Positions 16,517-61,599 of a stretch of DNA of 64,000 nt are shown one piece after another. How positions within the stretch are numbered: the first letter of the stretch is position 1; each line of letters opens with the position of its first letter. The stretch comes from a virus (Duplodnaviria; Heunggongvirae; Uroviricota; Caudoviricetes). The stretch lies in IMG/VR virus record IMGVR_UViG_3300008987_000001; one strand, given 5' to 3'. Under the pieces are notes generated by a model. The model worked only from the letters and a program-made list of their open reading frames with translations. It did not search any database and was not told the origin of the DNA. Position numbers and translations under genes: made by a program.

Positions 16517-17560
16517 TCATGTAATCGCAGTTATTACCTCACGAGCGACATGATAAAACACTTCCTTGCCATCCCACAGACCCTTAATCACCCTACTATC
16601 AACTCGAATGGATTCACCTTTACTACTAACCAATTTTGTCATACAGTGGTATCGTTCATCACGAATCATGTCACCAAGCACCTGTATAATACTTGAACAA
16701 TCACCTACCTCATGGACAATAGTAATTGACTGACCAATCAGATTCCCATTAGGATAGCCAAGCCTCATTCTCACCGCATCATTTATTGCAAGTATACTAC
16801 CTTCAAGACCCACAACAAAAATCATATCGGTCATTTTATTAAAAAGAGTGCGAAAGTTTTCACGTTCAAGATCCAACTGTTGTTGTGATGATTCAAGTGA
16901 TGAGATTGTATGCATTAAACTATCATTTGAAGTTCTCAATTCTTCTCCATGAACTTCAAGATCCATGACCTTTGCTTCTAATTCCTGCTCAACTTCGAAT
17001 CTATATAATACATGCCCGAGATGTTTTCCAAGGGTTCTTAATATATCACATACATCATCAGAGATTTCAATATCATTAAATGCCCCAATATTGATACAAC
17101 CCTTTACTGCATTATTATACAGAATTGGAACAGATATTAGTGTTTTAATACCACCGAGCAATGATGCAGTTTCCTGATACTTCTGATCATAATGCTTAAC
17201 ATAAACTGGTTTTCCAAACTGAAATAATTCACGGAGTTCCGGACGCTCTATACATATTCGATTCAACGTTTCAATAGCATGAACAGGAACAAACTTTGTT
17301 GCCACGACCTCTGCTCTACGTTCATGAATTAAGTAGATGCCCCCAATATCAAAATTGACAAAATCTATTGCTGCTTCTAGTATACCCTGAACCAACTCTT
17401 TTTGAGTCTTTGATTCATTCGCCTTGACAATAATCCCATTAAATACTTTAAGACGACGATGTTCACGAGATATAACAGAATCCTTCTCATACAATTGATG
17501 AGACAGGCTTTTTATATTATTTATTTGTTCCGCAATCGCCATCGACATTAGCAAAGACAT
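16517..17560 (-). CDS. GAF + PAS sensor-domain protein lacking an obvious output domain
   Basis: N-terminal GAF-like region and a C-terminal PAS-like segment (MTDMIFVVGLEGSILAINDAVRMRLGYPNGNLIGQSITIVHE...). Confidence 0.5.
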   Translation of the reverse strand: MSLLMSMAIAEQINNIKSLSHQLYEKDSVISREHRRLKVFNGIIVKANESKTQKELVQGILEAAIDFVNFDIGGIYLIHERRAEVVATKFVPVHAIETLNRICIERPELRELFQFGKPVYVKHYDQKYQETASLLGGIKTLISVPILYNNAVKGCINIGAFNDIEISDDVCDILRTLGKHLGHVLYRFEVEQELEAKVMDLEVHGEELRTSNDSLMHTISSLESSQQQLDLERENFRTLFNKMTDMIFVVGLEGSILAINDAVRMRLGYPNGNLIGQSITIVHEVGDCSSIIQVLGDMIRDERYHCMTKLVSSKGESIRVDSRVIKGLWDGKEVFYHVAREVITAIT

Positions 17561-18571: not shown

Positions 18572-18946
18572 CTAGTCTCTAAACATCCAAGTCATGTCGT
18601 ACGATCTGCCGTCCAAGTAATCCTCGCAGAATTGGGCTGCTTCTACTGGTTCGTAGCCTTTGCAACTGAATATGTCGATGAAGGTGCGGCCATCAAACTC
18701 ACTGAAATGCATGGTTATTGATGATGTGTGGATGAATTGCATGGCGCTATAACCGACCAGATCGCCTTCGCCAAAACGTTCAATGTAGGGCTCACCATGT
18801 GGTTCCATGTCAATATATTCAACCAGATCGAGGACAAAATCTCGAATGAATGATGCATCTGTTATCTTATCAAGATCGCAATCGTGAATGGTGAGCATTG
18901 TTGAAAGGCCCCAATGTCCTTCGTCATAAAACTGTTTGGTAATCAT
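18572..18946 (-). CDS. S-adenosylmethionine decarboxylase proenzyme (small pyruvoyl-dependent SpeH/SpeD-like class)
   Basis: LTIHDCD near the N-terminus and GYSAMQFIHTSSITMHFSEF...FIDIFSCKGY match the LAESHISIHTWPE...VDVFTCG pattern. 124 aa. Confidence 0.5.
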   Translation of the reverse strand: MITKQFYDEGHWGLSTMLTIHDCDLDKITDASFIRDFVLDLVEYIDMEPHGEPYIERFGEGDLVGYSAMQFIHTSSITMHFSEFDGRTFIDIFSCKGYEPVEAAQFCEDYLDGRSYDMTWMFRD

Positions 18947-18994: not shown

Positions 18995-19252
18995 CTAATT
19001 ATATTTTTTATGCGTATCATAGATCATTTTCCATGTAGCGTACTCATCATGCATTCCAATGGCATTGAATATGAAGTAGCCACCAAACAAAATCAGGTAT
19101 GAGATATTTGCAGTGCAGATCCCAAGGGTTAGCCAGCCAATGTTACCAAGTATTGAGATGTAGAAACCCGTGAATCGCATCTCATGACGGGATACACATG
19201 CCATACCAAGAATACTGATGGCTGACAATACCAGTTCGATCATCAGAACCAC
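18995..19252 (-). CDS. Small membrane protein (2-3 TM), holin-like?
   Basis: Hydrophobic 85-aa ORF. An adjacent 61-aa two-TM ORF lies at 19243-19428. Confidence 0.25.
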   Translation of the reverse strand: MVLMIELVLSAISILGMACVSRHEMRFTGFYISILGNIGWLTLGICTANISYLILFGGYFIFNAIGMHDEYATWKMIYDTHKKYN

Positions 19253-19654
19253 ACAGCATATTTATGGAGGATGTAGAGGTTTCGCATAAATGAATAGATA
19301 ATAAGAGCGAGCCAAAATATCCCAGGAATAAGCATGGCTCCGCATAATGCTGCGAGGAATATAATCAGGGCAACTTCCATACAAGACAGCCCAAAAGAAA
19401 TGATGATGGTTAAAATATGATCAAGCATGAATGATCCACTCCTTTACATTTTATATAACCCGCATTTACACCGACCCGTCTCAACGTGTTCTTTACATGG
19501 ACATACATTATCAGGGATGCGTTCAACCTTACATGGGCAATATGCAGCACCATACTTCTTATAATTACGACGAAGTGCTTCAATTATGCGCAATACCCGT
19601 GCCCCATCATCATTTAGTGCCCAGTCAGTCACCTTAAAATTGAAAAAATCATAT

Positions 19655-22600
19655 TCAATATCGTCTGTATCCATTATTACACACCGTAAAATCTCTTGTA
19701 AATGCAAAGTAGCCTAAATTAGTTGACTTGCAAATCTTTAGGGTCATGTCCATAAGACCGCGAGGATCTGGTTTCTGCTCACCGAGGTAAATGTTGCAAA
19801 TGTTTCCACCGTCGAGTATCGGGAAGAATGCCTGCTCAATACGAATCTTTTCAGCGATTTGAATATCAGCATCTACCGGGACGTGCGTACCATTTGTATA
19901 GTAAATTGGCAAATCGCGTGATCCGGTCTCGGCATACTTTTTAATGGCAGCACGAACATCGCCTTTAACAAACTTATGAGCATCGCCATAGTTAAGTAGA
20001 TCAAGCACCGCGAACCTTTGTGCTGTCGTTTCTGCTGGAGTTCTTGAAAATGATAACTTAATATCTTGTTCGGTGGTCATTTTTTTGCAATATTTATTGA
20101 GTTCATTGCATATCTTCAATGTAAACATATGTGCTCCATTATCAGAATACAATGGTTTACCAAGCATAATCTCGCATACCTCATTCATACCAACGATTCC
20201 GATAGTGAATACGTAATCTGATAGGTCTAGGAATGGTGGAATTAATTTTCCAGTGATAGAATCTCGTTTTATATGTGTTGGAAATGGGAGCATGCCATTA
20301 TCTATACACTCGGTTATCCAACCGCGTTTAATTTTAAAAATCTCAATGGCTAATTGAATGTTTTGTTTGCACAATTCTATGAAAGTATCTATGTTACCAG
20401 TGGATTCATATGCATATCGTGGCATGTTGAGCGTTATTACCTGCGCAGAACCCATGGTAAAGTGCTTTCCATCTCTAAAGTATAGTTTGTTATCGAAATC
20501 TGGATCTCCTTCCTCGCCGCTTGAAAACGAAAATGCGCAATTCGAAGATACCATTCCTTGGGCAGTAATAAATAAATGATCTGTTACTTCTACTGGATCA
20601 TATACATCCCCATCATACGGAGATGTTTCTATCTTAACAATTGGTGATTCCCATTTACACTCTTTATTAATACACGCGAAGAAAGATTTAACTTCTTCTT
20701 GTTTATTAAGGGTTAATATATGTCTAGTTTTTCTGTTTGGTCGTTTATCTTCAACGATTGAATACTTAAAATCATATCCAAGGCTACCTGTCAATAACAA
20801 TACCCCTTCAGCTAATGGTTTTGAAATTGTATTCATTTCAATACGAAGAATTTTTGATTTTGTTCCATTCTTACGAAGGCATCCATCGCCACGATAATAT
20901 CCATTTATAAATGCCCATTTACATTTAATTGGGGCATTAAGAATGAATGTCGGAACTGTCATATCGCGACCTTTCATCGCAACACCAATTTCAATAAACC
21001 AATCATGAATCTTATTGCTGTGAATGAATACCGATGTTCCAGCACCCTTATTTACAGACTGTAATTTGGCATCATATCCAAACACATTTTTGATTATAGA
21101 AACGGTTTTATTTATTAAATCAACCTCATGTGATCCATAGCACCACATTAAATGTCTATTTGTTCCATTTGGACTGATCGTGCTACTTCCTTCTGCAGCA
21201 AATAAACCAAGTAAATAACAAAATTCAACATCATTTTGTTCTGATAAAAACTTTGGTATTTTACCATTCGTTGGTAATTCACAATTTATAAAGGCTACAT
21301 CGCCAATAGATAAATTCTTTAATTCTAATATTCCACGATTCTTTATCGGAATTTTATGATCAAATGTACCACATATTCTTCTTCCACCATCTATTTTAAT
21401 AGTATACACATATTCGTTTATATGGTGTATCATAACATGACTGAATCCATGATGTCCAGATGGTGTAACAACAACATCATCATGTTTGAGTTCTGATATT
21501 GGTATGATACGAACCATTCCATTGTCAACAATCTGAATTAACGTATCTGGTAACAACGAACACTGCATGCACGAAATGCCTTTTCCGGCCCCACGATACT
21601 GTGGAATCATGTTATCAAAATATGGGGTTCCAAATTTACTTGCTAATTGAAATGCTGAAAGATATAATTCCCGAATACTTGGGTAATCACCAGACACCCC
21701 ATGCTCATCCTCATATTCCATCTTTGCTATGTATTCGGGTTCGAACGCAATCTCTGGTTTTGGGAAGTAAAATGGTTTGCCTGCGTAATCACCTGCGAGC
21801 ATCACATCCATAAATGCCTTGAATAGCAAACGATTCTCGCGTTCGAACTCTCCATAAGTTTCTGGACCAACATTGCCCTTATAAATCGCAGGCTTGTCGT
21901 TCCACATTTCAGGTATTGAAGGCGATAACTGTACGGAACTGAAAATCTGCTGGCCGCCTCTCGAAGTAAGCATCTGCGTCATTTCAAAGATAAAACATTG
22001 CATATTCTGTTTAATTTCTTTATATGTACAATCTTTGAAATATGGTGACAAAAAGCACAGGAAATTATAGAATCCCTCGCCCCCGGCAAAGTTAACTTGC
22101 CCACTGCCTAAAGTCTTTGATGCGTGGAGTATTGCAACTTCTGGGCGCATTGCCGGTCCTGCAACTGATGTGTGCTCTCCTGTACCATCTCCTGTGAATC
22201 CATAATAAAATACATACCGTAGATCCCAATCAGCACAAAAGTATCTACTTGTGATGTATTCTAAATCATGAATGTGTAAATTACCATTAAGGTGTGCTTC
22301 AGATAAATGCTCTGGGAGCATTAAAAGTGCTTGTTCCTTTGCCAGTTGATCGGCTTTTCTTTTGTGTACGGTTTCTGGGGAACGTTGTAAATTGGCGTTA
22401 TCTCCCTTTCCACCACCAATATCAGTCATTCTCGCATCATACACTGGCATCCCAACACGAGTATATTTGCGCCGACATTCATTCATATCACGTTCTAAAA
22501 ACTTGGTATTAACAAACTCCCTAATAAGTGGGCCTGTTACTGGATCGATTTTTAGAACACTTAATGTATTATATACATCATCAACTATATCTTCAATTGC

Positions 22601-22696
22601 TTTTCCGGTGCACCCAGTTTCTTTACGCACAGAATCGATAACTTTATTTCTATCAAATGATTCAATAGATCCATCATCCTTCCTTACTCTTACCAA
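19655..22696 (-). CDS. Ribonucleotide reductase catalytic body with N-terminal ATP cone, interrupted by an intein; lacks its own glycyl-radical C-terminus (see 22923-23228)
   Basis: ATP-cone motif VRKDDGSIESFDRNKVIDSV. Extein is 672 aa after removing the 341-aa intein. A glutaredoxin and an NrdD-type GRD are encoded directly upstream on the same strand. Confidence 0.6.
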   Translation of the reverse strand: MVRVRKDDGSIESFDRNKVIDSVRKETGCTGKAIEDIVDDVYNTLSVLKIDPVTGPLIREFVNTKFLERDMNECRRKYTRVGMPVYDARMTDIGGGKGDNANLQRSPETVHKRKADQLAKEQALLMLPEHLSEAHLNGNLHIHDLEYITSRYFCADWDLRYVFYYGFTGDGTGEHTSVAGPAMRPEVAILHASKTLGSGQVNFAGGEGFYNFLCFLSPYFKDCTYKEIKQNMQCFIFEMTQMLTSRGGQQIFSSVQLSPSIPEMWNDKPAIYKGNVGPETYGEFERENRLLFKAFMDVMLAGDYAGKPFYFPKPEIAFEPEYIAKMEYEDEHGVSGDYPSIRELYLSAFQLASKFGTPYFDNMIPQYRGAGKGISCMQCSLLPDTLIQIVDNGMVRIIPISELKHDDVVVTPSGHHGFSHVMIHHINEYVYTIKIDGGRRICGTFDHKIPIKNRGILELKNLSIGDVAFINCELPTNGKIPKFLSEQNDVEFCYLLGLFAAEGSSTISPNGTNRHLMWCYGSHEVDLINKTVSIIKNVFGYDAKLQSVNKGAGTSVFIHSNKIHDWFIEIGVAMKGRDMTVPTFILNAPIKCKWAFINGYYRGDGCLRKNGTKSKILRIEMNTISKPLAEGVLLLTGSLGYDFKYSIVEDKRPNRKTRHILTLNKQEEVKSFFACINKECKWESPIVKIETSPYDGDVYDPVEVTDHLFITAQGMVSSNCAFSFSSGEEGDPDFDNKLYFRDGKHFTMGSAQVITLNMPRYAYESTGNIDTFIELCKQNIQLAIEIFKIKRGWITECIDNGMLPFPTHIKRDSITGKLIPPFLDLSDYVFTIGIVGMNEVCEIMLGKPLYSDNGAHMFTLKICNELNKYCKKMTTEQDIKLSFSRTPAETTAQRFAVLDLLNYGDAHKFVKGDVRAAIKKYAETGSRDLPIYYTNGTHVPVDADIQIAEKIRIEQAFFPILDGGNICNIYLGEQKPDPRGLMDMTLKICKSTNLGYFAFTRDFTVCNNGYRRY
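20540..21562 (-). mobile_element. Intein with LAGLIDADG homing-endonuclease domain inside the RNR gene (aa 379-719)
   Basis: N-terminal Cys (CSLLPDTLIQIVDNG block A). LAGLIDADG motifs FCYLLGLFAAEGS and KWAFINGYYRGDGC. C-terminal GMVSSN followed by +1 Cys. Confidence 0.6.
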
Positions 22697-22911
22697 ATTC
22701 CCAACTCCTTGATAGCACCAGACTTGTCATAGTATTCCCCATCAATATCAACGATTGGTGCTTCTACTAATGTTACAGATTTCATCAATAATTCCATTCT
22801 AACATCATCATCCTCAAGATCGCGTGTTATATATTTTATGTCTTTCGATTTTAATAAATTCTTTAAATCGTCACAGTTTGGACAAATTGGTAATGTATAT
22901 ATAATAATCAT
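22690..22911 (-). CDS. Glutaredoxin / NrdH-like redoxin
   Basis: CPNC active-site motif at residues 10-13. About 73 aa thioredoxin fold with PIVDIDGEYY. Confidence 0.55.
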   Translation of the reverse strand: MIIIYTLPICPNCDDLKNLLKSKDIKYITRDLEDDDVRMELLMKSVTLVEAPIVDIDGEYYDKSGAIKELGIW

Positions 22912-22922
22912 ACTATTTCCAT

Positions 22923-23228
22923 TTATAATGAATCATAACGAACGCGGCGTTTTAACTCTTCAACCTTAGCAGAATTCCAAGATCCATTTCCTACTGGACT
23001 ATAGTATCCTGTTATTCGTGATAATACCTGCACATCATGCGCACCACATTCCGGGCACATAAATTCACCACATTCCTCACAGACTTTTATACCATCAACA
23101 ACACCATGACTACATGAACCTGTATCTTGTGAACACATCGTTTCTGGAACCCGTTTACATTCTGGACAACAACCATCTATCAGGTCAGTGTCTGCTAAAA
23201 TAAGTTTACATGTCTGACACTTGAACAT
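22923..23228 (-). CDS. Stand-alone NrdD-type Zn-ribbon + glycyl-radical domain (probable ATG at 23228; the ORF track starts at a TTG at 23243)
   Basis: CxxC pairs (CQTC, CCPEC, CEEC, CPECGAHD) followed by VLSRITGYYSPVGNGSWNSAKVEELKRRVRY. The same layout as the C-terminus of anaerobic RNR as I remember it (RRVCGYLGSPDARPFNAGKQEEVKRRVKH). Confidence 0.6.
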   Translation of the reverse strand: MFKCQTCKLILADTDLIDGCCPECKRVPETMCSQDTGSCSHGVVDGIKVCEECGEFMCPECGAHDVQVLSRITGYYSPVGNGSWNSAKVEELKRRVRYDSL

Positions 23229-23250
23229 ATCATACAGGTGCAATTTGCTA

Positions 23251-23261
23251 ATATATAAGTG
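23251..23261 (-). promoter_or_regulatory. TATA-like box (CACTTATATAT in gene orientation) about 25 nt upstream of the GRD ATG
   Basis: Recurrent motif. Spacing fits an archaeal leaderless transcript. Confidence 0.4.
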
Positions 23262-24727: not shown

Positions 24728-25450
24728 TTATTGTAACCACCTCTTTAGATAATTACCATCACGCTTGTAGTATATATGGGCATCAACATTGATGTCTTCG
24801 TAAAAGCCGACCTCACATTGGCACCTTGCTGCTATTGCAGTATGAAGGAAATGTATAGCATAGATGTTAGCACCCATACCCAGTAACACATCACGTGATC
24901 GCCAGAGTGTAAACATATTCAATTTACCATCAACTATCTCACATTTGAGCCACTGGAGACAGGGAGGACTTCTGATGTTTGTATAATTCTCATCATATGG
25001 GCGCCATGTAATTGCACAGGCACGGCGAGTTGATTTGGAAGCATTAAGTCGCTTTACTATCTCATCAATCTGATCAATTTTATACTGACGAGTATAATAT
25101 CGCTTGACCCCATCAGATGAGATACGCTCTTCATTACGTAAGACTTCATATTCACACAGTCGTTCAAAATAGGTGTAAACGAAGTCATCTGACGTATTTT
25201 TAACTTCCCGAGTATCTTGTCCTAGTATTTCATCAACATAACTGTCAAGTGATTGTATGCCCATTGGATAATAATCTGCTAACTTGGCAATGTCTCTGGA
25301 TGGGTCAGAAACGTGCAATACTAATGTGTCCTTTGATCTCCAGACCAATTCTTCATCTTCGGTTTCAAACTCGCGGTGATTCCAAATAATGTATTGAATG
25401 GCTTGTTTATATGCTTCAGCCAATGTAGGTGTCTCAATCCCTTTAACCAT
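24728..25450 (-). CDS. Thymidylate synthase (ThyA) superfamily enzyme: thymidylate synthase or dUMP/dCMP hydroxymethyltransferase
   Basis: SPPCLQW (active-site Cys) and RSRDVLLGMGANIYA align with ThyA LPPCH ... QRSxDxxLGxPFNIASY. Only 240 aa and lacks the canonical ThyA N-terminal LLWFL region. Confidence 0.55.
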   Translation of the reverse strand: MVKGIETPTLAEAYKQAIQYIIWNHREFETEDEELVWRSKDTLVLHVSDPSRDIAKLADYYPMGIQSLDSYVDEILGQDTREVKNTSDDFVYTYFERLCEYEVLRNEERISSDGVKRYYTRQYKIDQIDEIVKRLNASKSTRRACAITWRPYDENYTNIRSPPCLQWLKCEIVDGKLNMFTLWRSRDVLLGMGANIYAIHFLHTAIAARCQCEVGFYEDINVDAHIYYKRDGNYLKRWLQ

Positions 25451-26260: not shown

Positions 26261-26776
26261 TTAATTATATAGATTTAACCCTATACAATAGCAATCTTCC
26301 CAACTATCAGGAATATCCGTTGTATGATATGCTTTTGTTACTTCAGTATATTCGCATTCTAAACATGCCCATTCACACAATGCTCTCATTCCATCTGGAT
26401 AGAATCTATAACAATCAACCGGATATTTATGTTCTTCCCATACAGCGGGTGCAACAATACAAAAACACCCATTGCATTTAAGAACACGTTGAATTTCTCT
26501 GAATGTTAACCATGGATATTTTGCATGTTCAATCACGCTTGCACATATTACAATGTCGATGCTCGATGTTTCAATCTCATTCCAGTGATATGGATCCTTA
26601 ACTACTATATCTACATTTGGTCCATCTTCAATATCCATCCCAATATACTTACAATTTGTAAATAAATGTTTATGACTTCCATTTATATCGCACGAACCTA
26701 TTTCAAGGACCACATCATTATCACCCACATAATCCTTTGCGAAGTTACTAACTATGTCATATGAACTCTGATGCAT
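26261..26776 (-). CDS. SAM-dependent methyltransferase (class I)
   Basis: VLEIGSCDINGS motif I. Confidence 0.45.
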   Translation of the reverse strand: MHQSSYDIVSNFAKDYVGDNDVVLEIGSCDINGSHKHLFTNCKYIGMDIEDGPNVDIVVKDPYHWNEIETSSIDIVICASVIEHAKYPWLTFREIQRVLKCNGCFCIVAPAVWEEHKYPVDCYRFYPDGMRALCEWACLECEYTEVTKAYHTTDIPDSWEDCYCIGLNLYN

Positions 26777-26807
26777 TAATATATAATGAGGATTAAGTGA
26801 TATATAA

Positions 26808-27410
26808 ATGTATTTATGTGGTTTTTGTGGAAATGAAATAGATTTGCATCACAGAGATCAATTATGTTCATGTGGTGTCCCATTTAGACAAGGAATAATA
26901 TACAAACATGTGATAAATTATAACAATCTATCTATATACAATACATCATCAACTGATATTATACATCAAAAATTTAAAGATCTCCAACAATACACTTGCT
27001 CAGAATATTATGATGATGCAACAGATCATGAAGTTATGCATCAAGATTTATGTAACTTAACATTCGAAAATGAATCATTCGACATGGTAATTACACAAGA
27101 TATTATCGAACATGTAATTGATCCATTTAAAGCACTCAATGAAATAAATAGAGTATTGAGACCTAATGGATTTCATTTATGGACAATTCCAATTGACGAA
27201 GATATTGAAACAGCATCATGTACATATGAACTTTATCATGGAGATCCATTAAGGGAATGTGGTATAAAGGTATATACACTATTTGGATTTGATATAATTG
27301 ATATGATACCAAACACATCAATAATTGAAAAATATATTATATTTGAAAAAGTAGAAAATTTAAATTACAATTTATATATTTTAAAAACTATAAAAACTCC
27401 TTGTGAATGA
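26808..27410 (+). CDS. SAM-dependent methyltransferase (Methyltransf_11/23-like)
   Basis: DMVITQDIIEHVIDPFKALNEINRVLRPNGFHLWTIP. Confidence 0.45.
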   Translation: MYLCGFCGNEIDLHHRDQLCSCGVPFRQGIIYKHVINYNNLSIYNTSSTDIIHQKFKDLQQYTCSEYYDDATDHEVMHQDLCNLTFENESFDMVITQDIIEHVIDPFKALNEINRVLRPNGFHLWTIPIDEDIETASCTYELYHGDPLRECGIKVYTLFGFDIIDMIPNTSIIEKYIIFEKVENLNYNLYILKTIKTPCE

Positions 27411-28401
27411 TGTCCTGGCATACTCCATCCAATGCTCTATTTATTGCATCATTGCGACAAAACTGTGGGCAGTCATTGTTGGGTACAGTATTAAACACTT
27501 CATACATTTGCTCACTTTTTAGCACATCAGTAATACTTTGCTCATTTAGATTACCAATGTGATATGCTTTGTTTTGTCTATGGTGGATACATGCCCACAT
27601 TTGATTATCTGCAGTAATGACCGTGTTAAAGTACATGCCATGACACCGTGTATAGGGACGTTCAATCTCACCTACATGATCATACTTGTGGGTTGATGCA
27701 CGGATATTCAGTTTTGGGAATAAATCTTGTCCTTGCTTTATATATTCACTTACATCATTACATTCGCCAGTGAATGGTCGTAATTGAGCAAAATCAACAT
27801 GTAGACTATCAGCACGCTCAAAGAAATCCATGATGCCTGATAAAGTAGATTCACCAGTCAAGTATCCAAGACCAACAGATGTAATAGATTCGCTCACTGC
27901 ACGTAGTTGCATTAACTCATCAACATTATCAATTACATGCCAAAACTCTTCTTCCTCCATGCCATGGGTTAACTTATACATTGCAGGTGTTCCAGCATCT
28001 AATGATACTCTAAAGTATGTACAGCAATCAAGTATAGCACATCGAACATAATCATTGCACATAGCAAGTCCATTAGAGTTAAGTCCAATACTGATACCTG
28101 CATTCTTGAACATGTATAGTGCTTTGACAAAGTGAGGACTCATCATTGGCTCTCCCCCACCACTAATAACCACTGACTGAACATTCAAATTGCTCATTTG
28201 ATCAACAATTGAAGTGATTTGTTCAAGAGTTAACTCTGCGCCATTCTCCTTTACTCCCACACATTTTGGACATCGATTGTTACACTTGTTAGTTAAATCT
28301 AACTCGAATGATATGAGGGTTTCATGACCATGCACATAATTGTGGATTTTATCCTGATACTGTAGGATTTTCTCATTGGCATTGAAGTTGTTTAATTTCA
28401 T
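27388..28401 (-). CDS. Radical-SAM enzyme (probably sugar-modifying; not NrdG-like)
   Basis: CNNRCPKC = CxxxCxxC at residues 39-46. 337 aa, embedded in the glycan cluster. Confidence 0.55.
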   Translation of the reverse strand: MKLNNFNANEKILQYQDKIHNYVHGHETLISFELDLTNKCNNRCPKCVGVKENGAELTLEQITSIVDQMSNLNVQSVVISGGGEPMMSPHFVKALYMFKNAGISIGLNSNGLAMCNDYVRCAILDCCTYFRVSLDAGTPAMYKLTHGMEEEEFWHVIDNVDELMQLRAVSESITSVGLGYLTGESTLSGIMDFFERADSLHVDFAQLRPFTGECNDVSEYIKQGQDLFPKLNIRASTHKYDHVGEIERPYTRCHGMYFNTVITADNQMWACIHHRQNKAYHIGNLNEQSITDVLKSEQMYEVFNTVPNNDCPQFCRNDAINRALDGVCQDIIHKEFL

Positions 28402-28934
28402 GAAAAATACACCGCATTGTCAAAATTTGGCCATGCTTTATCCTTTTCACTTAATTGCGGGGATGTTTCAAACTCAATACATGATAAGGGATTCACTCCA
28501 CGCTCATGAGTTGGCGCATACACATTATCCACCTTATATATAATCTCGGTATCATCCTCAAGAATATGAATGCCATGAGCAAATCCTCTTGGAACCCATA
28601 GAAGGGGTCCATCAGCAGTTAGTTTATATGAGCCGATTTCACCAAATGTTTTGGAATATTGTCGCATGTCCATGAAGTAATCAGTAAGGGAGCCACGTGT
28701 GCAACGAACCAACTTCCCCTGATCATATGGGTAGCGCTGATAATGCATACCACGGAATACACCTGCTTGTGAACGTGAATGATTTTCCTGGATGAAGTCA
28801 AGTCGAATTCCATTATTTAGGAATTCCTTCTCGACATATGATTCCATGAACCACCCACGATCATCACCAATCCGCTTTGGATAAATGATCTTAATATCAG
28901 GCAACTCTTCATGCCTATAAAAAGTGAAAGCCAT
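28398..28934 (-). CDS. rmlC: dTDP-4-dehydrorhamnose 3,5-epimerase (RmlC-type cupin)
   Basis: FRGMHYQ ... LWVPRGFAHGI cupin motifs. 178 aa. Confidence 0.6.
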   Translation of the reverse strand: MAFTFYRHEELPDIKIIYPKRIGDDRGWFMESYVEKEFLNNGIRLDFIQENHSRSQAGVFRGMHYQRYPYDQGKLVRCTRGSLTDYFMDMRQYSKTFGEIGSYKLTADGPLLWVPRGFAHGIHILEDDTEIIYKVDNVYAPTHERGVNPLSCIEFETSPQLSEKDKAWPNFDNAVYFS

Positions 28935-28955
28935 TATATAGTATATAAGTTAGAT

Positions 28956-30101
28956 CTATATAATTCTTCGTATCCAGTTAAGTCTTGTAACAATCTGTTT
29001 ATTTAATACTCGTTGATTAAAATTATTTAGAATATGCTCTTTACATTTATTTCCAAGCATTCTGGCGTATTGTTTATCATTCACCAATGATAGCATGTGC
29101 ATTGAAGCATGACCAATTATTGGATCTGCCCATAAAGATACTGGGTTATATAAACATTGTGATGTCATTGTTTTTATCATATTATAATCGACAAGCAATG
29201 CACATGAACTATCAGTAAATTCCATGGATCCTCCATAAGATGTGACAATAACAGGTTTCCCAAGATACATGGCTTCCATCATTCCAATACCCAGACCTTC
29301 AGATCGATGTAATGATACATAACAATCAGATGCATTTATAAGACCTAAAAATTCTGATTTATCTACAACACCTCGTATATACTTTATATTATTGTAACGC
29401 TTTATGTAATGTATAAATGGTGCTTCTTCAAATGCGAACATTTCACCAAACATTGATTTTATCACTAATTGCACATCTGCTCTATTCCCAAAAGCACTTA
29501 TGAACGAATCAACTACAGCATAAGGATTCTTTCTATCAATAGATCCATAATAATCAAAAGAATAAAAGAATGTAAATTTATTTGAATCCAGTCCATATTT
29601 TTTGTATATTGTGGGTGGTGAGCAAACATCAATTATATTTGTCTCTGGTGCATATGCAAGTTTATGTATTGGGATCCCACGGTGATCAAACTTTTTGAAT
29701 ACATCATAACAGAATTGTGAAAAGCACCATATCTCATCTACATAATTATATGCATCGGTCCATGGGAAATAATCTTCAAGTTCCCAGAACCATACTCCGA
29801 TTGTATACTCATCCTCAGAAATTTGATGGTGATTCACTATACTTATAGCAGATTCAGCCCCGCCAAGAATAACATTTATAGGATAATGATTTGGTTCAAT
29901 AAATGTTAATGTTGATTTAAATGGAGTTACGGTATGTGGAATATCATTATCAATGAGAGATTTATGAAGCACCCTTGCAATTTCCCCCATTCCATTATCA
30001 TGAAGAACTCCAGCGTATAAATCAACTCCGAATGAATTCCATTTATGTTTATTAAAAATAGAATTAGAAATTACAGAAATTGATTTATTTAAATGTAGCA
30101 T
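28956..30101 (-). CDS. Glycosyltransferase, GT-B fold (GT4-like)
   Basis: EGLGIGMMEAMYLGKPVIVTSYGGSMEF (E-x7-E motif region). Confidence 0.5.
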   Translation of the reverse strand: MLHLNKSISVISNSIFNKHKWNSFGVDLYAGVLHDNGMGEIARVLHKSLIDNDIPHTVTPFKSTLTFIEPNHYPINVILGGAESAISIVNHHQISEDEYTIGVWFWELEDYFPWTDAYNYVDEIWCFSQFCYDVFKKFDHRGIPIHKLAYAPETNIIDVCSPPTIYKKYGLDSNKFTFFYSFDYYGSIDRKNPYAVVDSFISAFGNRADVQLVIKSMFGEMFAFEEAPFIHYIKRYNNIKYIRGVVDKSEFLGLINASDCYVSLHRSEGLGIGMMEAMYLGKPVIVTSYGGSMEFTDSSCALLVDYNMIKTMTSQCLYNPVSLWADPIIGHASMHMLSLVNDKQYARMLGNKCKEHILNNFNQRVLNKQIVTRLNWIRRII

Positions 30102-31080
30102 TTATGAATCCACCCCACTTATTAATAAAATAACAACGTTCATTGTATTCTATGAGTTGCTTTTCAAGCGTTGTGTCATATCCACGGGTCTTTGATTCGT
30201 AATGATATAACTTGGCATATGGCGTATATAAAACCTTATAATTTGCCTGATTCACTTTCATGCACAGATCAATATCATTATATGCAATTGGTAAATTATC
30301 ATCCATTCCACCAAGATCCAAATATAATTCACGCTTTATTGCAACACATGCTCCAGTAACCGCTGGATATATCATTGGCTCATTTGTCCGAGGATAAATG
30401 TCACACTTATGAGAATTTACATGCATAAATCCACCAATCACTTCACTATATACAACCCCACAGTGCTGTATAGTATGGTCAGCAAATAACAATTTAGCAC
30501 CAGTCATTCCAATAGTTGGATCGTCTATCATTGGACCAACCAATTGTTCAATCCATGTAGGTTCAATAATTTCAGTATCATTATTCAGCATGATAATATA
30601 TTCACCAGAACAATGAGGTATCACGGCATTATGAATTGCTGCATAATTATACTCCAATGGATAATCAAATACCAGTATGTTATATGGGCAGTTATCAAGC
30701 CAATCAACGGTATATTCATCACTCTGATTATTCACCACTATAATTTCATAATTGTTATGGGTTGATGACGTTACTATAGATCCAATACACTTGTTTAGAT
30801 CTTTAAGATGATCTCTTGTTGGAATAACAATAGTGACTAGTGTATCATTTAGATCATATGATGGTACATTTTCAAATTTATACAACTCGCAATTCATAGG
30901 TATACTTCTAACTTTATATGCAATGTGATTCGAGATGTCAATCCATTCTTGTTTTTTAAATAATGGTCCAAGTAATCCTAATACAAATCCTCCAATTAAC
31001 ATTTTATTTTTCTGTGAAAATATATAATGTGTAAAGTACAATGACAATACTCCGTTAATATAATTCAACTTACTTATCAT
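30085..31080 (-). CDS. Glycosyltransferase family 2 (GT-A), N-terminal TM
   Basis: VTIVIPTRDHLKDLNKCIGSI ... IIMLNNDTEII (DxD). Confidence 0.5.
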   Translation of the reverse strand: MISKLNYINGVLSLYFTHYIFSQKNKMLIGGFVLGLLGPLFKKQEWIDISNHIAYKVRSIPMNCELYKFENVPSYDLNDTLVTIVIPTRDHLKDLNKCIGSIVTSSTHNNYEIIVVNNQSDEYTVDWLDNCPYNILVFDYPLEYNYAAIHNAVIPHCSGEYIIMLNNDTEIIEPTWIEQLVGPMIDDPTIGMTGAKLLFADHTIQHCGVVYSEVIGGFMHVNSHKCDIYPRTNEPMIYPAVTGACVAIKRELYLDLGGMDDNLPIAYNDIDLCMKVNQANYKVLYTPYAKLYHYESKTRGYDTTLEKQLIEYNERCYFINKWGGFINATFK

Positions 31081-31921
31081 GATTTATATAGTCCTTTAAT
31101 GCTCGTTCCCAATATGGTGTATATATAATATGCGATGCCATTGATGTATTACATTGTCCATTCGGTGACTCAAATGGTTCAATTTCTATAGATAAATTTG
31201 CTAATTCTTTTATTTTACAAGCAAACTCATACCAGGAACAAGATCCGGCATTATTTAAATGAAATGTTCCTCTAAAATTATTACGTACAAGTAAATTCAA
31301 CGCACCAGTTGCATCCCGACAATACGTTGGACTCATAATAATATTATCTGGTATCGAAAGATCATCTATAGCATGCAACACTTTCTCTATGAAATTTGGA
31401 CCCTTGTTACTTGATCCTTTGAGACCGAAGAGACTGGACACTCTCCCAATAATATAATTGTCAGTGACATCCATTATGGCTTGTTCACCACACACCTTAC
31501 TCCTCCCATATTCATTGAGAGGTGCTACAGGATCGTCCTCATAATATGGAGAGCCTTTCCTTCCATCAAATACATAGTCAGTGGAGAAGTGAATAAATGT
31601 AGCATCAATATCATTACAAGTGTATGCCATGGACTTTGGCACCTCACAGTTCATTAGGTGTGCTAACCGTGGGTTATTCTCACACCCATCAACATCATGA
31701 TATGCTGTACAATTAATCACAATGGATGGCCCCACTTCACTTATATATTTATATACAACTTCAGCATCCCTGACATCAAGATCGTGGTGACTTGGAGCAA
31801 TTGCATCAAATGCCTTGACAATCTCACACCCCAATTGTCCCGAACCACCAAATACCAAAACACGTGACATTATATAATAGTTAGTTTTCGTATATATAAA
31901 TCTAATTGTTATACAACCCAC
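31070..31921 (-). CDS. rmlD: dTDP-4-dehydrorhamnose reductase (RmlD-type short-chain reductase)
   Basis: VLVFGGSGQLG Rossmann motif. Family-typical length 283 aa. Confidence 0.55.
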   Translation of the reverse strand: MGCITIRFIYTKTNYYIMSRVLVFGGSGQLGCEIVKAFDAIAPSHHDLDVRDAEVVYKYISEVGPSIVINCTAYHDVDGCENNPRLAHLMNCEVPKSMAYTCNDIDATFIHFSTDYVFDGRKGSPYYEDDPVAPLNEYGRSKVCGEQAIMDVTDNYIIGRVSSLFGLKGSSNKGPNFIEKVLHAIDDLSIPDNIIMSPTYCRDATGALNLLVRNNFRGTFHLNNAGSCSWYEFACKIKELANLSIEIEPFESPNGQCNTSMASHIIYTPYWERALKDYINHDK

Positions 31922-36594: not shown

Positions 36595-38994
36595 TTAGAA
36601 CCAAGCCTCCAGTGTATTTTGGCCATTGATTGCTGATTCCCAGTTAAGGCCAATGCTCCACATATAACTTTCCATTTTATCCTTTATACATTTATCTGCC
36701 ATAAGTTTCCAATCAACATCATGAATTATTTTCGAAGTATCAAATCCATCATCAATACAGATTACTCGATCTTCTTTGAGATATACTAAACGGGGCTTCT
36801 CTCCTTCCTGGATAATATATCCATACTCATTCTTTGCATATTCTTTACCATCTAGCCATGAATTCTTCTTATCATATTTCAACTTACGTAGTTCCTTTGG
36901 TAATGATATATCATATATATCTACTTCACCATTTCGAACTCGTTGGTATAGATTCTTTACATGGTTTGTAGCCTTATTCACATCACCTTCAATAATTGCA
37001 GTTTCTAGGAAGTATAGTAGGCATTCCTTTATTATTTTCGGATTATCAGAACGTTTGATTTCAAGACCCATGAACTTTAATTCACTGCATTCAGTTCCTT
37101 CTTCCCAAATTAAGTGTCCTGCATACTTCTTTTTCCCAGTCTTGTTTCGATCTGTTGTTTTGGATTTGAATAATAGACGTCTAAATAACTTCTCCGCTTT
37201 GAGTTTGAAATGAACAGACGAACCTTTTTCATCTGACCACTTTACCAGTTCTTCATTAAGGTATTTTTCTAACTCTAAACATTCGGAGCCAGTAAAAACC
37301 TCAGATATGAAAACGGAGTCAGTATCTCCGTAGATTATCGATTTGGAGCGATTAGAACAAAGTTTCTGTATATGCCTATTGAGGTCTTGTCCAGTTTGGG
37401 TAATGAATTCAGCTTTCTCACGATCATATAATCGAGCAGATGGAGCCCCCATAATACCAAACACACTATTTACAAGACTCTTTGCAGAACTGTCGCGTGC
37501 TCCTGCTCCCAATAGTCCTTGTTTTTTCTGTTCTCTATACATCTCGCGAAGATCCATAAGCTTCTTGGTTGATTTTGCCACAACTCCATCTATATCGGGC
37601 GAAACAGAAAATCCAACGATCACATGTGGATAAAGGGCATTTAAATCCACTGTAGAAACCCATTCGTGAATTCCGAACGTTGGCTCGACTACAAGGGCAC
37701 CCTTGAACTTATCTTTTTCTCCTCCATACTTCTTACGGGGCATTGGCTTAATTCCTTCATGCATGACATACATTTCAATAACAAGTGAATTATGTAAACC
37801 ATCCATTATTTTATTCCCTGCAATCGATCTTGTAGTCTCAAAGAAATTATACAGACCAAGTTTCTTATCAATTACTTGTAGTGCTATAACATCATTCTTA
37901 CAATATTCAATGAATTCATCAAATCGTTCTTCATTGATAATCTGATCGAGGATTGGTGCAATATCTTTATAACTAAATGCAGCATCTTCTAATAATTCTT
38001 CATCAGATATAACTGATTTGAGTCCATTAGATTCGCGTTGTCCCTTTCCAATATTATATTTCTTAAATGCTTCCATCTCATCAAGAACTGCTCTACCAGG
38101 AATATATGAGCGAAACTTTCCATAAGTTGGATCATATTTAATTGAACAAGATCCATATCGTGGAATTCCTTTAAGATTTGTTCCAATATTAATAGAACGG
38201 TTAATTAAGTATGGTATATCATACTGATCTGAATTCCAAGCAGCTAAAATGTCTGGATTTATTTCATGCACATATGCGCAGAATAATTTAAACAACTCTT
38301 TTTCAGTCTCACAACATATTTGGCATGGGTCACCAGTCTCGCCAATTTGATAAGTAAATACTGCAATCTTTTCAGTATACGAATCCATGACTTGAATACT
38401 TACTACTGGATACTCTACATCCTTTGCATTTGGAAATATACCTTCCGGAGCACGAGTTTCAATATCAAAATATACAATACGTGGATCCATTACATGTTCT
38501 ATGTCAATTGGAGAAGGAATTCCATCTATAAGTGTATATGCATAACGGATTTTATGATCTACAAGAAATCGTTTATCAAACAAAACATCACTTTCATCAG
38601 TCCATGAATAGATATCACGGACTTTTGATACATCACTTGGTATCTTGACATTTACACGTTGAATTTCTCTACCTTTCGCATCAATTATTATTTCTGGATC
38701 TACATTTGTAATTAGTTCATGTATACGATGAGATTCATTAACAGGACAATAGAAGTATGGATTATATTGAAATGAATGTGTAACAGTCTCAAACTTATCA
38801 TTATAATTTCGCGAATACAAATCTACATATGGGACTCCATATTGTAAATGGTATCCACTTTCCATGACAACCCATATTTGATCATCAGACATGTATACTA
38901 TATACAACTGCAATGTATAAAAAAGATGTGAGTTATACCCACATGATACCAAGGAAGAACCCAATAATAAGTCCAATGATAACCATGAGGACAC
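36595..38994 (-). CDS. polB: Family B DNA polymerase
   Basis: Exo I FDIET. Motif A DLNALYP. Motif C IIYGDTDSVFI. 799 aa. Confidence 0.8.
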   Translation of the reverse strand: MSSWLSLDLLLGSSLVSCGYNSHLFYTLQLYIVYMSDDQIWVVMESGYHLQYGVPYVDLYSRNYNDKFETVTHSFQYNPYFYCPVNESHRIHELITNVDPEIIIDAKGREIQRVNVKIPSDVSKVRDIYSWTDESDVLFDKRFLVDHKIRYAYTLIDGIPSPIDIEHVMDPRIVYFDIETRAPEGIFPNAKDVEYPVVSIQVMDSYTEKIAVFTYQIGETGDPCQICCETEKELFKLFCAYVHEINPDILAAWNSDQYDIPYLINRSINIGTNLKGIPRYGSCSIKYDPTYGKFRSYIPGRAVLDEMEAFKKYNIGKGQRESNGLKSVISDEELLEDAAFSYKDIAPILDQIINEERFDEFIEYCKNDVIALQVIDKKLGLYNFFETTRSIAGNKIMDGLHNSLVIEMYVMHEGIKPMPRKKYGGEKDKFKGALVVEPTFGIHEWVSTVDLNALYPHVIVGFSVSPDIDGVVAKSTKKLMDLREMYREQKKQGLLGAGARDSSAKSLVNSVFGIMGAPSARLYDREKAEFITQTGQDLNRHIQKLCSNRSKSIIYGDTDSVFISEVFTGSECLELEKYLNEELVKWSDEKGSSVHFKLKAEKLFRRLLFKSKTTDRNKTGKKKYAGHLIWEEGTECSELKFMGLEIKRSDNPKIIKECLLYFLETAIIEGDVNKATNHVKNLYQRVRNGEVDIYDISLPKELRKLKYDKKNSWLDGKEYAKNEYGYIIQEGEKPRLVYLKEDRVICIDDGFDTSKIIHDVDWKLMADKCIKDKMESYMWSIGLNWESAINGQNTLEAWF

Positions 38995-50657: not shown

Positions 50658-51224
50658 TTATAGGTTACTTATGATTCTTGAGATGTTACTGTGTATGGGG
50701 GTTGAGGTGGTGTCTATCATGAGGACATTGAGATTGAATAGTTTAAATATTAGATCGTAACGGGATTGGATGCATTGGATCTGGCTGATTGATAGGTGGT
50801 GTTCTTCACTTCTTTCTGATAATCTGTGATGTATAATTGATGGTTCGGCATATACATAGATTACGAGGGCTGGTGGAAACACTGCTAACTGACTACTGTA
50901 TACTTGGTTTATTGCGCAGAATGGTGGCCAGTGATGTTTGGTTTCAATCTCTATTGATTGGTATACAAGGCTACATATGAAAGATCTGTCGCTTATGAGA
51001 TGGGTTGTGAGTGGAAATTCAATGTCTTTATATAATAAATATCTATCGTGGGCAAATAGGTCAATCTGTTTAAATACATCATTGGTTTCTTTGATTTGCT
51101 TGATGAAGGTATCATTGTGGGGTTCTTTGATGTAAGTGGCTGGATATTGTTGTTTTAGGTGTTCTAGGATAGTAGATTTTCCTGAACCATCACACCCACA
51201 AATGTTAATAATGCATGGATCCAT
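50658..51224 (-). CDS. Thymidylate (dTMP)/deoxynucleoside kinase-like P-loop kinase; probable start at the internal Met (51224). The ORF track extends to 51296 across a TATA-like box.
   Basis: MDPCIINICGCDGSGKST Walker A typical of thymidylate kinases. Confidence 0.5.
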   Translation of the reverse strand: MDPCIINICGCDGSGKSTILEHLKQQYPATYIKEPHNDTFIKQIKETNDVFKQIDLFAHDRYLLYKDIEFPLTTHLISDRSFICSLVYQSIEIETKHHWPPFCAINQVYSSQLAVFPPALVIYVYAEPSIIHHRLSERSEEHHLSISQIQCIQSRYDLIFKLFNLNVLMIDTTSTPIHSNISRIISNL

Positions 51225-51302
51225 TAGTAATGGTTGGGTGTTAATGTATATATAAGGTTGGGTAAAAATAGATGTGGTTAATATATCCCCTGCCAAGGAT
51301 TA

Positions 51303-60219: not shown

Positions 60220-61599
60220 TCAAACATATGACATTATCCTATTACGAATAGTATCTAAATCCTCTTCGATTAGTAATTTACCATTTTCATAGACTAATGG
60301 TAAATTAAACTTACCAGGTTTACTTTCCTTCCCAATAGTAGTTTTGTTTACATCTATCCACTCATTGTTTCGTTTGATGCAACTTGCTTTGATTGCCCAA
60401 CGATTCGTATCACGATTATGTTTTTGGAGTAATGATCCACCACTACCAAAGATAATGTTACTTGGTGCAAAGTGATGAATACTCACTACCTCATGGAGTA
60501 TTTGACTTATCGTATGGGCATCTATACCATCACCATAGATGACGCCGACACGTGAATTTAATACTTTGTAACCACGTTCATTTTTACTCCCACCATATGC
60601 ATCCCATAGATAGTTGAGAATTTTTACAGATACTTTAACTGGATTCCCAGTATCTGGCCTGATTACGCACTTGTCCCGACGATTAAGGATCAATTCTTTG
60701 AGATCGTTGCAGAAATATTGCTTCACTGCATGTTCCCAGTCATACGAATCACATACTAGACTAATTACTGTTGCATTACCAAATCGCTTATCAGATTCTT
60801 CAATTATATGTCTATAGGCTTCGCATTCATGTTCTTGACCCCAACTAGTAATTGTGCTATGTTCTGCAGCAATAACCGATCCACCACAAACATCACTATT
60901 GTAATACCAACGGGCTTTTTCTATAGATGGAATATTATCTGTACCTTGGAAGATTAATAAATGACCTAGCCCACATAATTCGGCACTGGTTAAACTTGAT
61001 GCACCACGAAGTCCAAAGTCATTTAAGTGAAATGGACTTACCTGTTCACCTGCTACATCTGCATACTTTTTGATTCGTTTGTATATATCATAAGATATGG
61101 TTGCAGTATTGGACATAGCATAACAATGCATGAGTAATGACTCTACGTAATTAGTTAACCATGGAACTTGTTCATCTGTATTCTCAATTGCCAACACTGG
61201 AGTTCCTGGTTTAACTATAGTTCCTTCTGGTAATGCATAAATACGCAGGGGTAATGATCCACTATGTTCATTAATAATGTGATTCCAACCATCACGATTG
61301 AAAAAGTTATTACTGCCCATAGAATTTATTACATGTTCAGCCTCTGATACCATTTCACGAGTTAGATAGGTGTGTATAAAATTGTAATGTTTTAATATGA
61401 ATTGTAATCCACACCATACAATGTCCTCATACTGTGCTCCAACACGCGGTTCCATGTAACTATACACTACTTGAGTATCTGGGGGATACTGAAAATAGTG
61501 GGTTGCTTTGTAATAATCAGTTAGAGTTATAAAATTTCTATCTCTCATACGTCTCATCAACTTGTGATTGTGTAAGGGATTACATAGAGTATTACTCAT
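60220..61599 (-). CDS. Nicotinamide phosphoribosyltransferase (NAMPT/NadV family)
   Basis: N-terminal LTDYYKATHYFQYP ... VYSYMEPR typical of NAMPT/PncB. 459 aa. Confidence 0.55.
   Translation of the reverse strand: MSNTLCNPLHNHKLMRRMRDRNFITLTDYYKATHYFQYPPDTQVVYSYMEPRVGAQYEDIVWCGLQFILKHYNFIHTYLTREMVSEAEHVINSMGSNNFFNRDGWNHIINEHSGSLPLRIYALPEGTIVKPGTPVLAIENTDEQVPWLTNYVESLLMHCYAMSNTATISYDIYKRIKKYADVAGEQVSPFHLNDFGLRGASSLTSAELCGLGHLLIFQGTDNIPSIEKARWYYNSDVCGGSVIAAEHSTITSWGQEHECEAYRHIIEESDKRFGNATVISLVCDSYDWEHAVKQYFCNDLKELILNRRDKCVIRPDTGNPVKVSVKILNYLWDAYGGSKNERGYKVLNSRVGVIYGDGIDAHTISQILHEVVSIHHFAPSNIIFGSGGSLLQKHNRDTNRWAIKASCIKRNNEWIDVNKTTIGKESKPGKFNLPLVYENGKLLIEEDLDTIRNRIMSYV

Follow-up and report, generated by a model that had tools for sequence, protein, structure and literature searches.

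Gene organization of the operon

We analysed a stretch of 64,000 nt (hereafter the window) from a metagenome contig held as IMG/VR virus record IMGVR_UViG_3300008987_000001, and examined in it an operon predicted to encode a class III (anaerobic) ribonucleotide reductase (RNR) of the NrdD family whose glycyl-radical domain (GRD) is the product of a separate gene. The operon lies throughout on the minus strand. In the 5' to 3' direction it comprised a stand-alone GRD protein of 101 aa (22923-23228; Pfam NRDD, TIGR02487), an NrdH-like redoxin of 73 aa with a CPNC motif (22690-22911; Pfam Glutaredoxin, E 3.9e-10), the NrdD catalytic body as an open reading frame (ORF) of 1013 aa (19655-22696; Pfam ATP-cone, NRDD, LAGLIDADG_3 and Intein_splicing), and a ferredoxin:thioredoxin-reductase-like (FTR-like) protein of 76 aa (19444-19674; Pfam FeThRed_B, E 7.6e-8). 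An earlier note, made from the letters of the window alone, had correctly placed a CPNC redoxin between the GRD and body genes; the FTR-like gene adjoining the body is an addition to its gene list. The TTG start of the body overlapped the redoxin stop codon and was preceded by AAGGAG at a distance of 8 nt, and the FTR-like gene began, with an ATG, 20 nt before the body gene ended.

The small GRD ORF was listed at 22923-23243, with 106 aa from a TTG. From sequence comparison, translation most likely begins instead at the ATG at 23228, which makes a protein of 101 aa, because all homologues begin with MFKC, because the gene call made by JGI on the 133-kb parent contig (P0405) is also 101 aa long, and because a TTATATA lies about 26 nt upstream. 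An exact-sequence look-up of the 106-aa (wrong-start) form and of P0161 returned no database record. The TTATATA forms the core of a candidate archaeal TATA box, TTATATATTA (23249-23258, minus strand), found by reading the sequence. The core was kept in relatives: five viral relatives showed it at equal spacing from the ATG while the flanks had diverged. This arrangement suggests that transcription from TTATATATTA would yield an mRNA with little or no leader, in which the GRD gene comes first after the promoter.

Catalytic body

The body showed the profile matches of an NrdD without its last part. Pfam ATP-cone covered aa 3-79 (about 22460-22690; E 5.7e-6), Pfam NRDD (PF13597) matched at E 7.6e-119 with the match ending at profile position 516 of 562, and TIGR02487, the NrdD equivalog model, gave 393 bits against a cutoff of 326. 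The C-terminus (...FTRDFTVCNNGYRRY) contained no glycyl-radical motif. The earlier note had described just such an ORF, with an ATP cone and no radical motif of its own. The ending ...GYFAFTRDFTVCNNGYRRY (FTRDFTVC-NNGYRRY) fell at the exact point where fused NrdD3 proteins start their zinc ribbon and GRD, and those proteins go on past it with ...FTxDMTVCxxC...CPxCGS...SR[IV]TGY. The same-chain GRD of class III NrdDs was thus absent from the body and was found only in trans, on the 101-aa protein. When compared with a fused 757-aa Methanothrix NrdD (P0206), the body corresponded to residues 19-701 and the small ORF to residues 715-756: by sequence, the two proteins together are collinear with a fused NrdD. 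We infer that SRYFC(154) contains the conserved cysteine of the barrel (βA). The N-extein of the body, described below, also includes the first of the two Cys in the QCC finger loop.

A concatenation of body and GRD was modelled with AlphaFold2 (AF2). The usable model, built with a 136-row alignment, reached a pLDDT of 77.9 and a pTM of 0.75 (the single-sequence version reached a pLDDT of 31.6), and it does not bear on docking or on the proximity of Gly to Cys. It placed the radical Gly between two short predicted strands, with a C-terminal helix after them. A Foldseek search of the PDB with this model returned strong matches to class III RNRs only (S. thermophilus, P. copri, T. maritima and T4; E 5e-31 to 1e-18), and class I α subunits followed at about 1e-9. 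Class I or class II identity is ruled out by the TIGR02487 score above cutoff and by strong structural matches confined to class III, and the enzyme is, by profile and predicted fold, a class III (NrdD) RNR.

Small glycyl-radical protein

The small ORF supplied the part of the profiles that the body lacked. It matched Pfam NRDD at positions 508-562 of 562 (E 6.5e-14, over the gathering score) and TIGR02487 at positions 525-581 of 581, in line with the earlier claim that an NrdD-type GRD lies on a separate polypeptide encoded upstream. Neither Pfam nor NCBIfam held a dedicated model for the protein; only NrdD models matched, under the NCBIfam equivalog cutoffs. A profile of the small protein aligned to residues 697-737 of Prevotella copri NrdD, whose structure is solved, a segment that includes radical Gly711. 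Residues 676-739 of that enzyme form its glycyl-radical domain, with the Zn site and Gly711 (PMC11226230).

The architecture of the small protein consisted of an extra N-terminal CxxC...CxxC zinc ribbon, a conserved C/C/H cluster, a canonical NrdD CxxC-x4-CxxC knuckle and the radical loop SRITG(74)YY, followed by WNSAK..EL..R..RY. Its close homologues were stand-alone only, at 97-101 aa. Across 11 homologues 38 columns were invariant, all Cys and the Gly among them. The ratio dN/dS was 0.12-0.14 with synonymous sites near saturation, indicating purifying selection. A Pfam scan of the small ORF gave no match to the Gly_radical family of pyruvate formate-lyase (PFL) type, and returned only NRDD and a sub-threshold double zinc ribbon. 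As judged from these matches, the small protein is an analogue of GrcA/YfiD and not a member of that family.

Two features of the split point were also observed. HMMER paired the middle of the small protein (residues ~29-50, ...DTGSCSHGVVDGIKVCEEC) with the last barrel strand and first zinc knuckle of T. maritima NrdD (...ADMGVMYFAFNTKISVCEDG), and the body retained a lone Cys (FTVCNNGY) at the position of the first CxxC in fused proteins. Both could go back to a partial duplication at the split point, or could have arisen by chance.

Intein in the finger loop

The body ORF is interrupted by a predicted intein of 340 aa (aa 380-719; 20540-21559, minus strand), which separates an N-extein of aa 1-379 (21560-22696, minus strand), containing the ATP cone and the first part of the NRDD match, from a C-extein of aa 720-1013 plus stop (19655-20539, minus strand), in which the NRDD match ends. 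The element carried a LAGLIDADG homing-endonuclease domain (Pfam LAGLIDADG_3, E 6.6e-13) and matched Intein_splicing (E 7e-7). Its boundaries were set by intein-free homologues: P0162 (93% identical, 673 aa, GISCMQCCA), the L001 body and the L007 body (...GISCMQCCAFSF). Splicing residues were Ser1 (S380-LLPDT), a TxxH block (TFDH), the C-terminal end ...GMVSSN719 and the +1 Cys C720; the penultimate residue was Ser, not His. These features are those of a class 1 LAGLIDADG intein. Predicted excision is in frame, and would leave a 673-aa body with the loop GISCMQ-C|C-AFSF restored, matching the QCCA of intein-free homologues. The earlier note had recognized the intein and expected 672 aa after its removal; the intein stands, and the size is corrected by one residue, since a 341-aa (Cys1) boundary would remove one Cys of the invariant CC pair.

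The two Cys of the QCCA finger loop, a catalytic element, are thus separated by the intein. The finger-loop Cys that would become the thiyl radical was invariant in homologues, and in the window protein it depends on the predicted splicing. Related viral NrdD bodies contained inteins at three different sites (window 20540-21559; L006:8799-12128; L004:10524-13628). The L006 intein interrupted SRQF|C, at the putative barrel (βA) cysteine, and that of L004 lay at RGGQ|S...HN|TVFSS. With these insertion points the viral NrdD body family is an intein hotspot at catalytic positions. Inteins are usually located in the active sites of working proteins.

Probable redox partners and enzyme subtype

The redoxin matched TIGR02196 and TIGR02194 below their cutoffs, and was 34% identical (E 1e-16) to a CPNC protein encoded directly upstream of the NrdD body in Methanomicrobiales. 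The FTR-like protein contained the motif CPC-x11-CPC-x8-CKC and scored 32.8 bits against PF02943 (cutoff 22). In an alignment with the FTR catalytic chains 7pwe, 4tpu and 1dj7 its CxC motifs, three in number, all fell in register, and it so carries the [4Fe-4S] signature of the FTR catalytic subunit, with the cluster itself predicted.

The NrdD3 clade is marked by a QCCR/A finger loop without the Met and Glu of other subtypes (PMC9669993). The spliced loop of the window protein, MQCCA, fits this motif. Because of the QCCA loop and the flanking NrdH-like and FTR-like genes, the enzyme is placed, on sequence grounds, in the NrdD3 type, that is, as methanogen-like and presumably dependent on NrdH and ferredoxin:disulfide reductase (FDR). 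In the study of Wei et al. of 2015 (Biochemistry 54:7019), electrons reportedly reach the Methanosarcina barkeri NrdD3 from ferredoxin through ferredoxin:disulfide reductase and an NrdH-like protein. The M. barkeri enzyme belongs to the same family (NRDD/TIGR02487), has the same QCCA loop and is served by the same accessory types, an NrdH-like redoxin and an FTR-like reductase; fused Methanothrix-type relatives are about 50% identical to the viral body. The earlier note had considered a thioredoxin-dependent NrdD subtype, which was right in kind. The difference lies in organization: characterised and fused NrdD3 enzymes have the zinc ribbon and radical loop at the C-terminus of one chain, whereas in the virus the radical domain is separate, is encoded upstream and has an extra N-terminal zinc ribbon, the finger loop contains an intein, and there is no nrdG nearby.

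Conservation in viral relatives

The gene order GRD-redoxin-body was found in ten related loci (L001-L007, L009, L094, L095), with bodies of 671-676 aa, longer where an intein was present. The FTR-like gene followed the body in L001-L003, L005, L007, L094 and L095. A divergent group (L103; body 54% identical) showed a primase gene, a GRD of 102 aa, a redoxin of 80 aa and a body of 683 aa, with no FTR-like gene in the cassette. All 11 body-containing viral loci kept the GRD gene in the same operon, and the order GRD-redoxin-body held wherever a related viral or mobile-element locus was long enough to show it. Relatives are catalogued in IMG/VR, and the contigs came from JGI, Logan, ENA, NCBI and IMG/VR assemblies with protein identities of 47-93%. 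All bodies in the viral groups ended at the same point without a GRD, and tblastn found no GRD downstream of them.

With the 4-kb locus as nucleotide query, no match was obtained among 50,697 records of cultured phages. A protein search of phage records with the small ORF brought up nothing but the C-terminal ends of normal fused NrdDs (32-34% identity). The earlier note knew of no precedent in viruses, and this point needs division: the cassette occurs in at least two divergent virus or mobile-element groups, and a published description was not found.

Four IMG/VR contigs encoded a GRD of 106-146 aa without the rest of the cassette (L096:4893-5333, L097:4908-5309, L098:4500-4820, L099:4989-5312). 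These contigs are partial (10-37 kb), and no body, redoxin or FTR-like gene was found within about 5 kb of the GRD. Neighbouring genes encoded prim-pol/D5-like primase, C5 DNA methylase, terminase and helicase. Viruses of this kind may provide a host body with the radical subunit alone. In L096 an HNH-endonuclease ORF (L096:5267-5893) directly followed the GRD gene and closed with ...GWNAAKAQELKDRTRYDVGVQE, so that the C-terminal motif of the GRD is present twice; this resembles the insertion of a homing endonuclease by which the 3' end of the targeted gene was copied.

The window had a G+C content (GC) of 36%, as against 53-69% in the Methanomicrobiales loci examined, and also encoded tail-like proteins, an ERCC4 nuclease and a PD-(D/E)XK nuclease. 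The source is best read as an uncultivated tailed archaeal virus.

Methanogen counterparts and the wider family

Among 1.84 billion representative proteins, a profile built on the small protein had 369 matches at E <= 1e-3. The best 105 of these were all short (48-208 aa) and mostly covered the full profile; full-length NrdDs appeared only from E ~3e-7. A genome scan, with one genome per GTDB species and a profile from 11 closer sequences, identified 485 loci encoding a GRD relative. All of the best 80 were from Methanomicrobiales (Methanoregula, Methanolinea, Methanospirillum and Methanofollis), and the closed chromosome OY970361.1 was among them. By tblastn the GRD was present in 80/80 of these best loci with no NrdD body within 6 kb. 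In the two loci viewed in detail (L082, L040), the GRD gene stood beside genes for deoxyhypusine synthase, pyrF and a CbiZ/Cys-rich protein.

The bodies gave the matching picture. Among the matches listed, 117 of the 120 closest homologues of the spliced body lacked the GRD; the other three were fused, Methanothrix-type proteins of 757-783 aa. Proteins of 726-729 aa from Methanoregula and other Methanomicrobiales, named 'anaerobic ribonucleoside-triphosphate reductase' in their source records, showed 51-52% identity and ended with ...GYFAFTRDITVSLKQFHEMRP.... On a 1.6-Mb Methanomicrobiales contig an overlapping gene for an 89-aa CPNC redoxin preceded the body, and no GRD was found within 8 kb of that body.

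The Methanomicrobiales pair and the viral pair shared the split point (...GYFAFTRDxTV|) and a CPNC redoxin directly upstream of the body. The small Methanomicrobiales 'NRDD' ORF (about 85-160 aa) had the same full-profile architecture, and its GRD was about 42-48% identical to the window protein. In Methanomicrobiales, however, the genes were unlinked, and in L090 no FTR-like gene stood beside the body, whereas the virus puts all of them in one operon. Judging from these sequences, Methanomicrobiales as a rule appear to have two separate genes, a state that seems to be undescribed in the searchable literature. The viral order is best read as an operon gathered from two separate genes in which the cellular NrdH-body pair was kept. 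The GRD-redoxin-body order described as 'permuted' in the earlier note was accurate as an order; as the rearrangement of a fused gene, the term overstates the case, because in Methanomicrobiales the two genes stand apart and unlinked to begin with.

We tentatively suggest, at clearly less than even odds, that the small protein is one of a large and so far unrecognised family, that of autonomous class III RNR glycyl-radical subunits in Methanomicrobiales and their viruses, with at least about 100 clusters at 50% identity.

Several stand-alone GRDs differed at the radical site. P0048, P0053 and P0062 had a 12-aa insertion directly after the radical Gly (SRVTG-LKMKIRSYFHRD-LSDVAGWN), and P0093, P0101, P0110, P0111 and P0114 stopped at that same point with a similar read-through sequence. 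The sequence after the radical Gly in these GRDs may be an intervening sequence at the Gly codon.

A proposed two-polypeptide reductase and alternative explanations

The combined observations suggest that the four-gene viral operon encodes a functional two-polypeptide class III RNR of NrdD3 type, a reading to which we give a probability of roughly three in four. The earlier note had proposed a class III enzyme of two polypeptides, and the class is borne out by the 393-bit TIGR02487 score and by best structural matches to class III (E ~1e-31). In the mechanism envisaged, the small protein would dock on the barrel, perhaps via its extra N-terminal zinc ribbon, and an NrdG-type activase of the radical S-adenosylmethionine (SAM) class would turn Gly74 into a glycyl radical on the small subunit. 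The Gly loop would then enter the barrel and generate a thiyl radical at the Cys of the finger loop. Once a turnover was complete, the CPNC NrdH-like protein would re-reduce the active-site disulfide, and would itself be reduced by the [4Fe-4S] FTR-like protein with reduced ferredoxin. In a solved NrdD structure the GRD is a mobile module that is disordered in the inhibited state (PMC11226230), and action from a separate chain is plausible because of this mobility. Since none of the bodies in the clade of the viral protein carries its own GRD, the small protein is probably an obligatory subunit. More speculatively, it could be exchangeable as well, as GrcA is for PFL, because the oxygen-labile radical would sit on a cheap 11-kDa subunit.

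Several points weigh against this reading. Binding of body and GRD, a radical on the small protein and splicing of the intein are all predictions from sequence. For the AF2 model, confidence was moderate over the GRD (63-82), and the finger loop scored poorly (about 56-59). Cellular body and GRD genes were seen in separate loci, not together in one closed genome. A neighbour-joining tree placed fused Methanothrix-type NrdDs between the viral and the Methanomicrobiales split clades, and with this tree a single split, two splits or a re-fusion are all compatible. Finally, the activase that the earlier note proposed to look for elsewhere in the genome did not appear: a CxxxCxxC motif scan of all window ORFs for NrdG candidates found no NrdG-type activase in the 64 kb, and only two ORFs had the motif. 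One was rejected as a methyltransferase, and the other as a radical-SAM/SPASM protein in a sugar cluster whose similarity was of a generic radical-SAM kind only (NrdG2 34 bits, cutoff 131). Since none was found in the window, the activase would come from the host or from the rest of the 133-kb genome.

In relatives, too, no NrdG-type activase was found within ±10 kb of the locus. A 241-aa radical-SAM protein in L006 was rejected as MoaA-like or generic, and the neighbour of the cellular GRD gene was rejected as CbiZ with a Cys-rich domain. In L099 a 294-aa CxxxCxxC protein (L099:5309-6193), with a weak radical-SAM core match, overlapped the stop of the GRD-only gene; it was not NrdG-like by Pfam or NCBIfam HMM, and was missing at the same place in the related L098.

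The alternative that survives best, which we nonetheless hold to be unlikely, is that the small protein acts mainly as a spare part in the manner of GrcA/YfiD, or as a takeover factor for a host NrdD that lacks a GRD or has been damaged by oxygen. Phage T4 offers a parallel in Y06I, which serves PFL as an autonomous glycyl-radical cofactor (Wagner et al. 2001, as cited in PMC13450708). The GRD-only contigs L096-L099, in which no body, redoxin or FDR gene accompanies the GRD, would suit such a role, as would the closeness of the L096 and L097 GRDs to Methanomicrobiales chromosomal GRDs (58-60% identity) and the host-like GC of those two contigs (56-57%). Yet those contigs are fragments on which a body could lie elsewhere, and the virus of the window has a body of its own, with the GRD gene retained in the operon of every body-containing viral locus, as for a dedicated partner.

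A functional two-polypeptide enzyme also has to be set against decay, in which a truncated, intein-invaded NrdD would survive beside a leftover C-terminal fragment. The body does lack a domain essential in all characterised NrdDs, its catalytic loop is interrupted by the intein, and the window holds no activase. The pattern of conservation makes decay quite improbable, however: the four ORFs were intact across relatives at synonymous saturation, the GRD has evolved at a dN/dS of about 0.12-0.14, the catalytic Cys, zinc ligands and radical Gly were invariant, and the splicing residues of the intein were kept. The presence of the split in all Methanomicrobiales sequences examined likewise argues for function.

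Trans-splicing of protein or RNA, which would join the two polypeptides into a conventional fused NrdD, is more improbable still. Split inteins and fractured genes are known for metagenomic RNR genes (PMC2677866), and the present gene family is an intein hotspot with three insertion sites. Neither the body C-terminus (...CNNGYRRY) nor the GRD N-terminus (MFKCQTC...) gave an intein-domain match, though, and the first 50 residues of the small protein form a conserved zinc ribbon and not an intein half; in cells, moreover, the two genes are unlinked and differently flanked. An artefact of assembly or gene calling, with the GRD really 3' of the body or fused to it, is suggested only by the unusual gene order and the origin of the window in a metagenome contig, and is scarcely credible, since the same order and boundaries recurred across independent samples and assemblers, in proteins 47-93% identical, with body ORFs that end at one point everywhere and nothing like a GRD behind them by tblastn.

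Relation to known systems and implications

To our knowledge, the radical Gly loop is fused to the barrel in every characterised NrdD. A full-text literature search found no class III RNR with a separate GRD gene, although a remark in Wei et al. 2014/2015 is possible. Spare-part glycyl-radical proteins were known only for formate lyases in a review of June 2026, which posed as a question whether such proteins exist outside PFL (PMC13450708). The small protein is a candidate for the first stand-alone glycyl-radical subunit outside PFL. GrcA/YfiD and T4 Y06I are likewise small stand-alone glycyl-radical proteins that act in trans, presumably after activation by the cognate radical-SAM activase. 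The viral protein differs from them in having a GRD of NrdD type (Pfam NRDD), not of PFL type, and zinc ribbons that are absent from GrcA; and GrcA rescues a PFL that has its own GRD, whereas the viral body has none.

RNR catalytic subunits made of two polypeptides are also found in Pseudomonas aeruginosa (NrdJa/NrdJb, class II) and Aeromonas phage Aeh1 (NrdA-a/NrdA-b, with mobE). Split RNRs are known, RNR genes are hotspots for inteins and homing endonucleases, and phage nrdD genes are split by introns and homing endonucleases (PMC9669993, PMC3045599, PMC3653736). The pieces of known split RNRs are adjacent and in N-to-C order, and in phages a mobile element lies at the break. In the virus, by contrast, the break falls exactly at the boundary of barrel and GRD with no element at the junction, and the C-terminal piece comes first with the redoxin gene between. 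What is new is a quaternary organization that reaches beyond one virus; the enzyme family, the subtype and the chemistry are known.

A conserved separate subunit would mean that, unlike in fused NrdDs, the radical loop can be delivered in trans. Should the small protein indeed belong to a family of autonomous class III RNR subunits, glycyl-radical enzymes other than the formate lyases would for the first time have stand-alone radical proteins, and during infection viruses could recharge or hijack a GRD-less host reductase and cheaply replace the part that oxygen damages. Small, expressible candidates make the spare-part question testable, and with activase, GRD and barrel as separate parts activation would be easier to dissect. 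The annotation of deoxynucleoside triphosphate (dNTP) synthesis in an abundant order of methanogens is affected as well: the 726-729-aa 'NrdD' proteins examined are without the radical domain and would be incomplete as enzymes alone. Archaeal viruses would bear either a self-contained, ferredoxin-driven module for dNTP synthesis or the radical subunit alone, and targeting by mobile elements is richly illustrated by inteins at three different catalytic sites and by traces of homing endonucleases at the GRD gene.

Other genes in the window

Two small, strongly hydrophobic ORFs (85 and 61 aa; 18995-19428, same strand) lay directly 3' of the FTR-like gene; neither gave a family match, and counterparts followed the FTR-like gene in L001 and L007.

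A family-B DNA polymerase was encoded at 36595-38994; its closest relatives among cultured viruses, only about 25% identical, were those of tailed viruses of the haloarchaeal HF1/HRTV type.

For an archaeal virus, an unusual set of auxiliary genes was present, at 16517-17560 (GAF-PAS sensor-like), 18572-18946 (pyruvoyl-type AdoMet decarboxylase), 24728-25450 (thymidylate-synthase-family), 50658-51296 (thymidylate/deoxynucleoside kinase) and 60220-61599 (nicotinamide phosphoribosyltransferase, NAMPT). The match of the thymidylate-synthase-family protein was partial, and it is possibly a dCMP/dUMP-modifying enzyme.

A minus-strand cluster at 26261-31921 encoded RmlD-like and RmlC-like dTDP-sugar enzymes, GT1 and GT2 glycosyltransferases, the radical-SAM/SPASM protein and a SAM methyltransferase. 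This sugar (dTDP-rhamnose/glycosyltransferase) cluster was syntenic in relatives, and is probably a module for glycan modification of the virion or of DNA.

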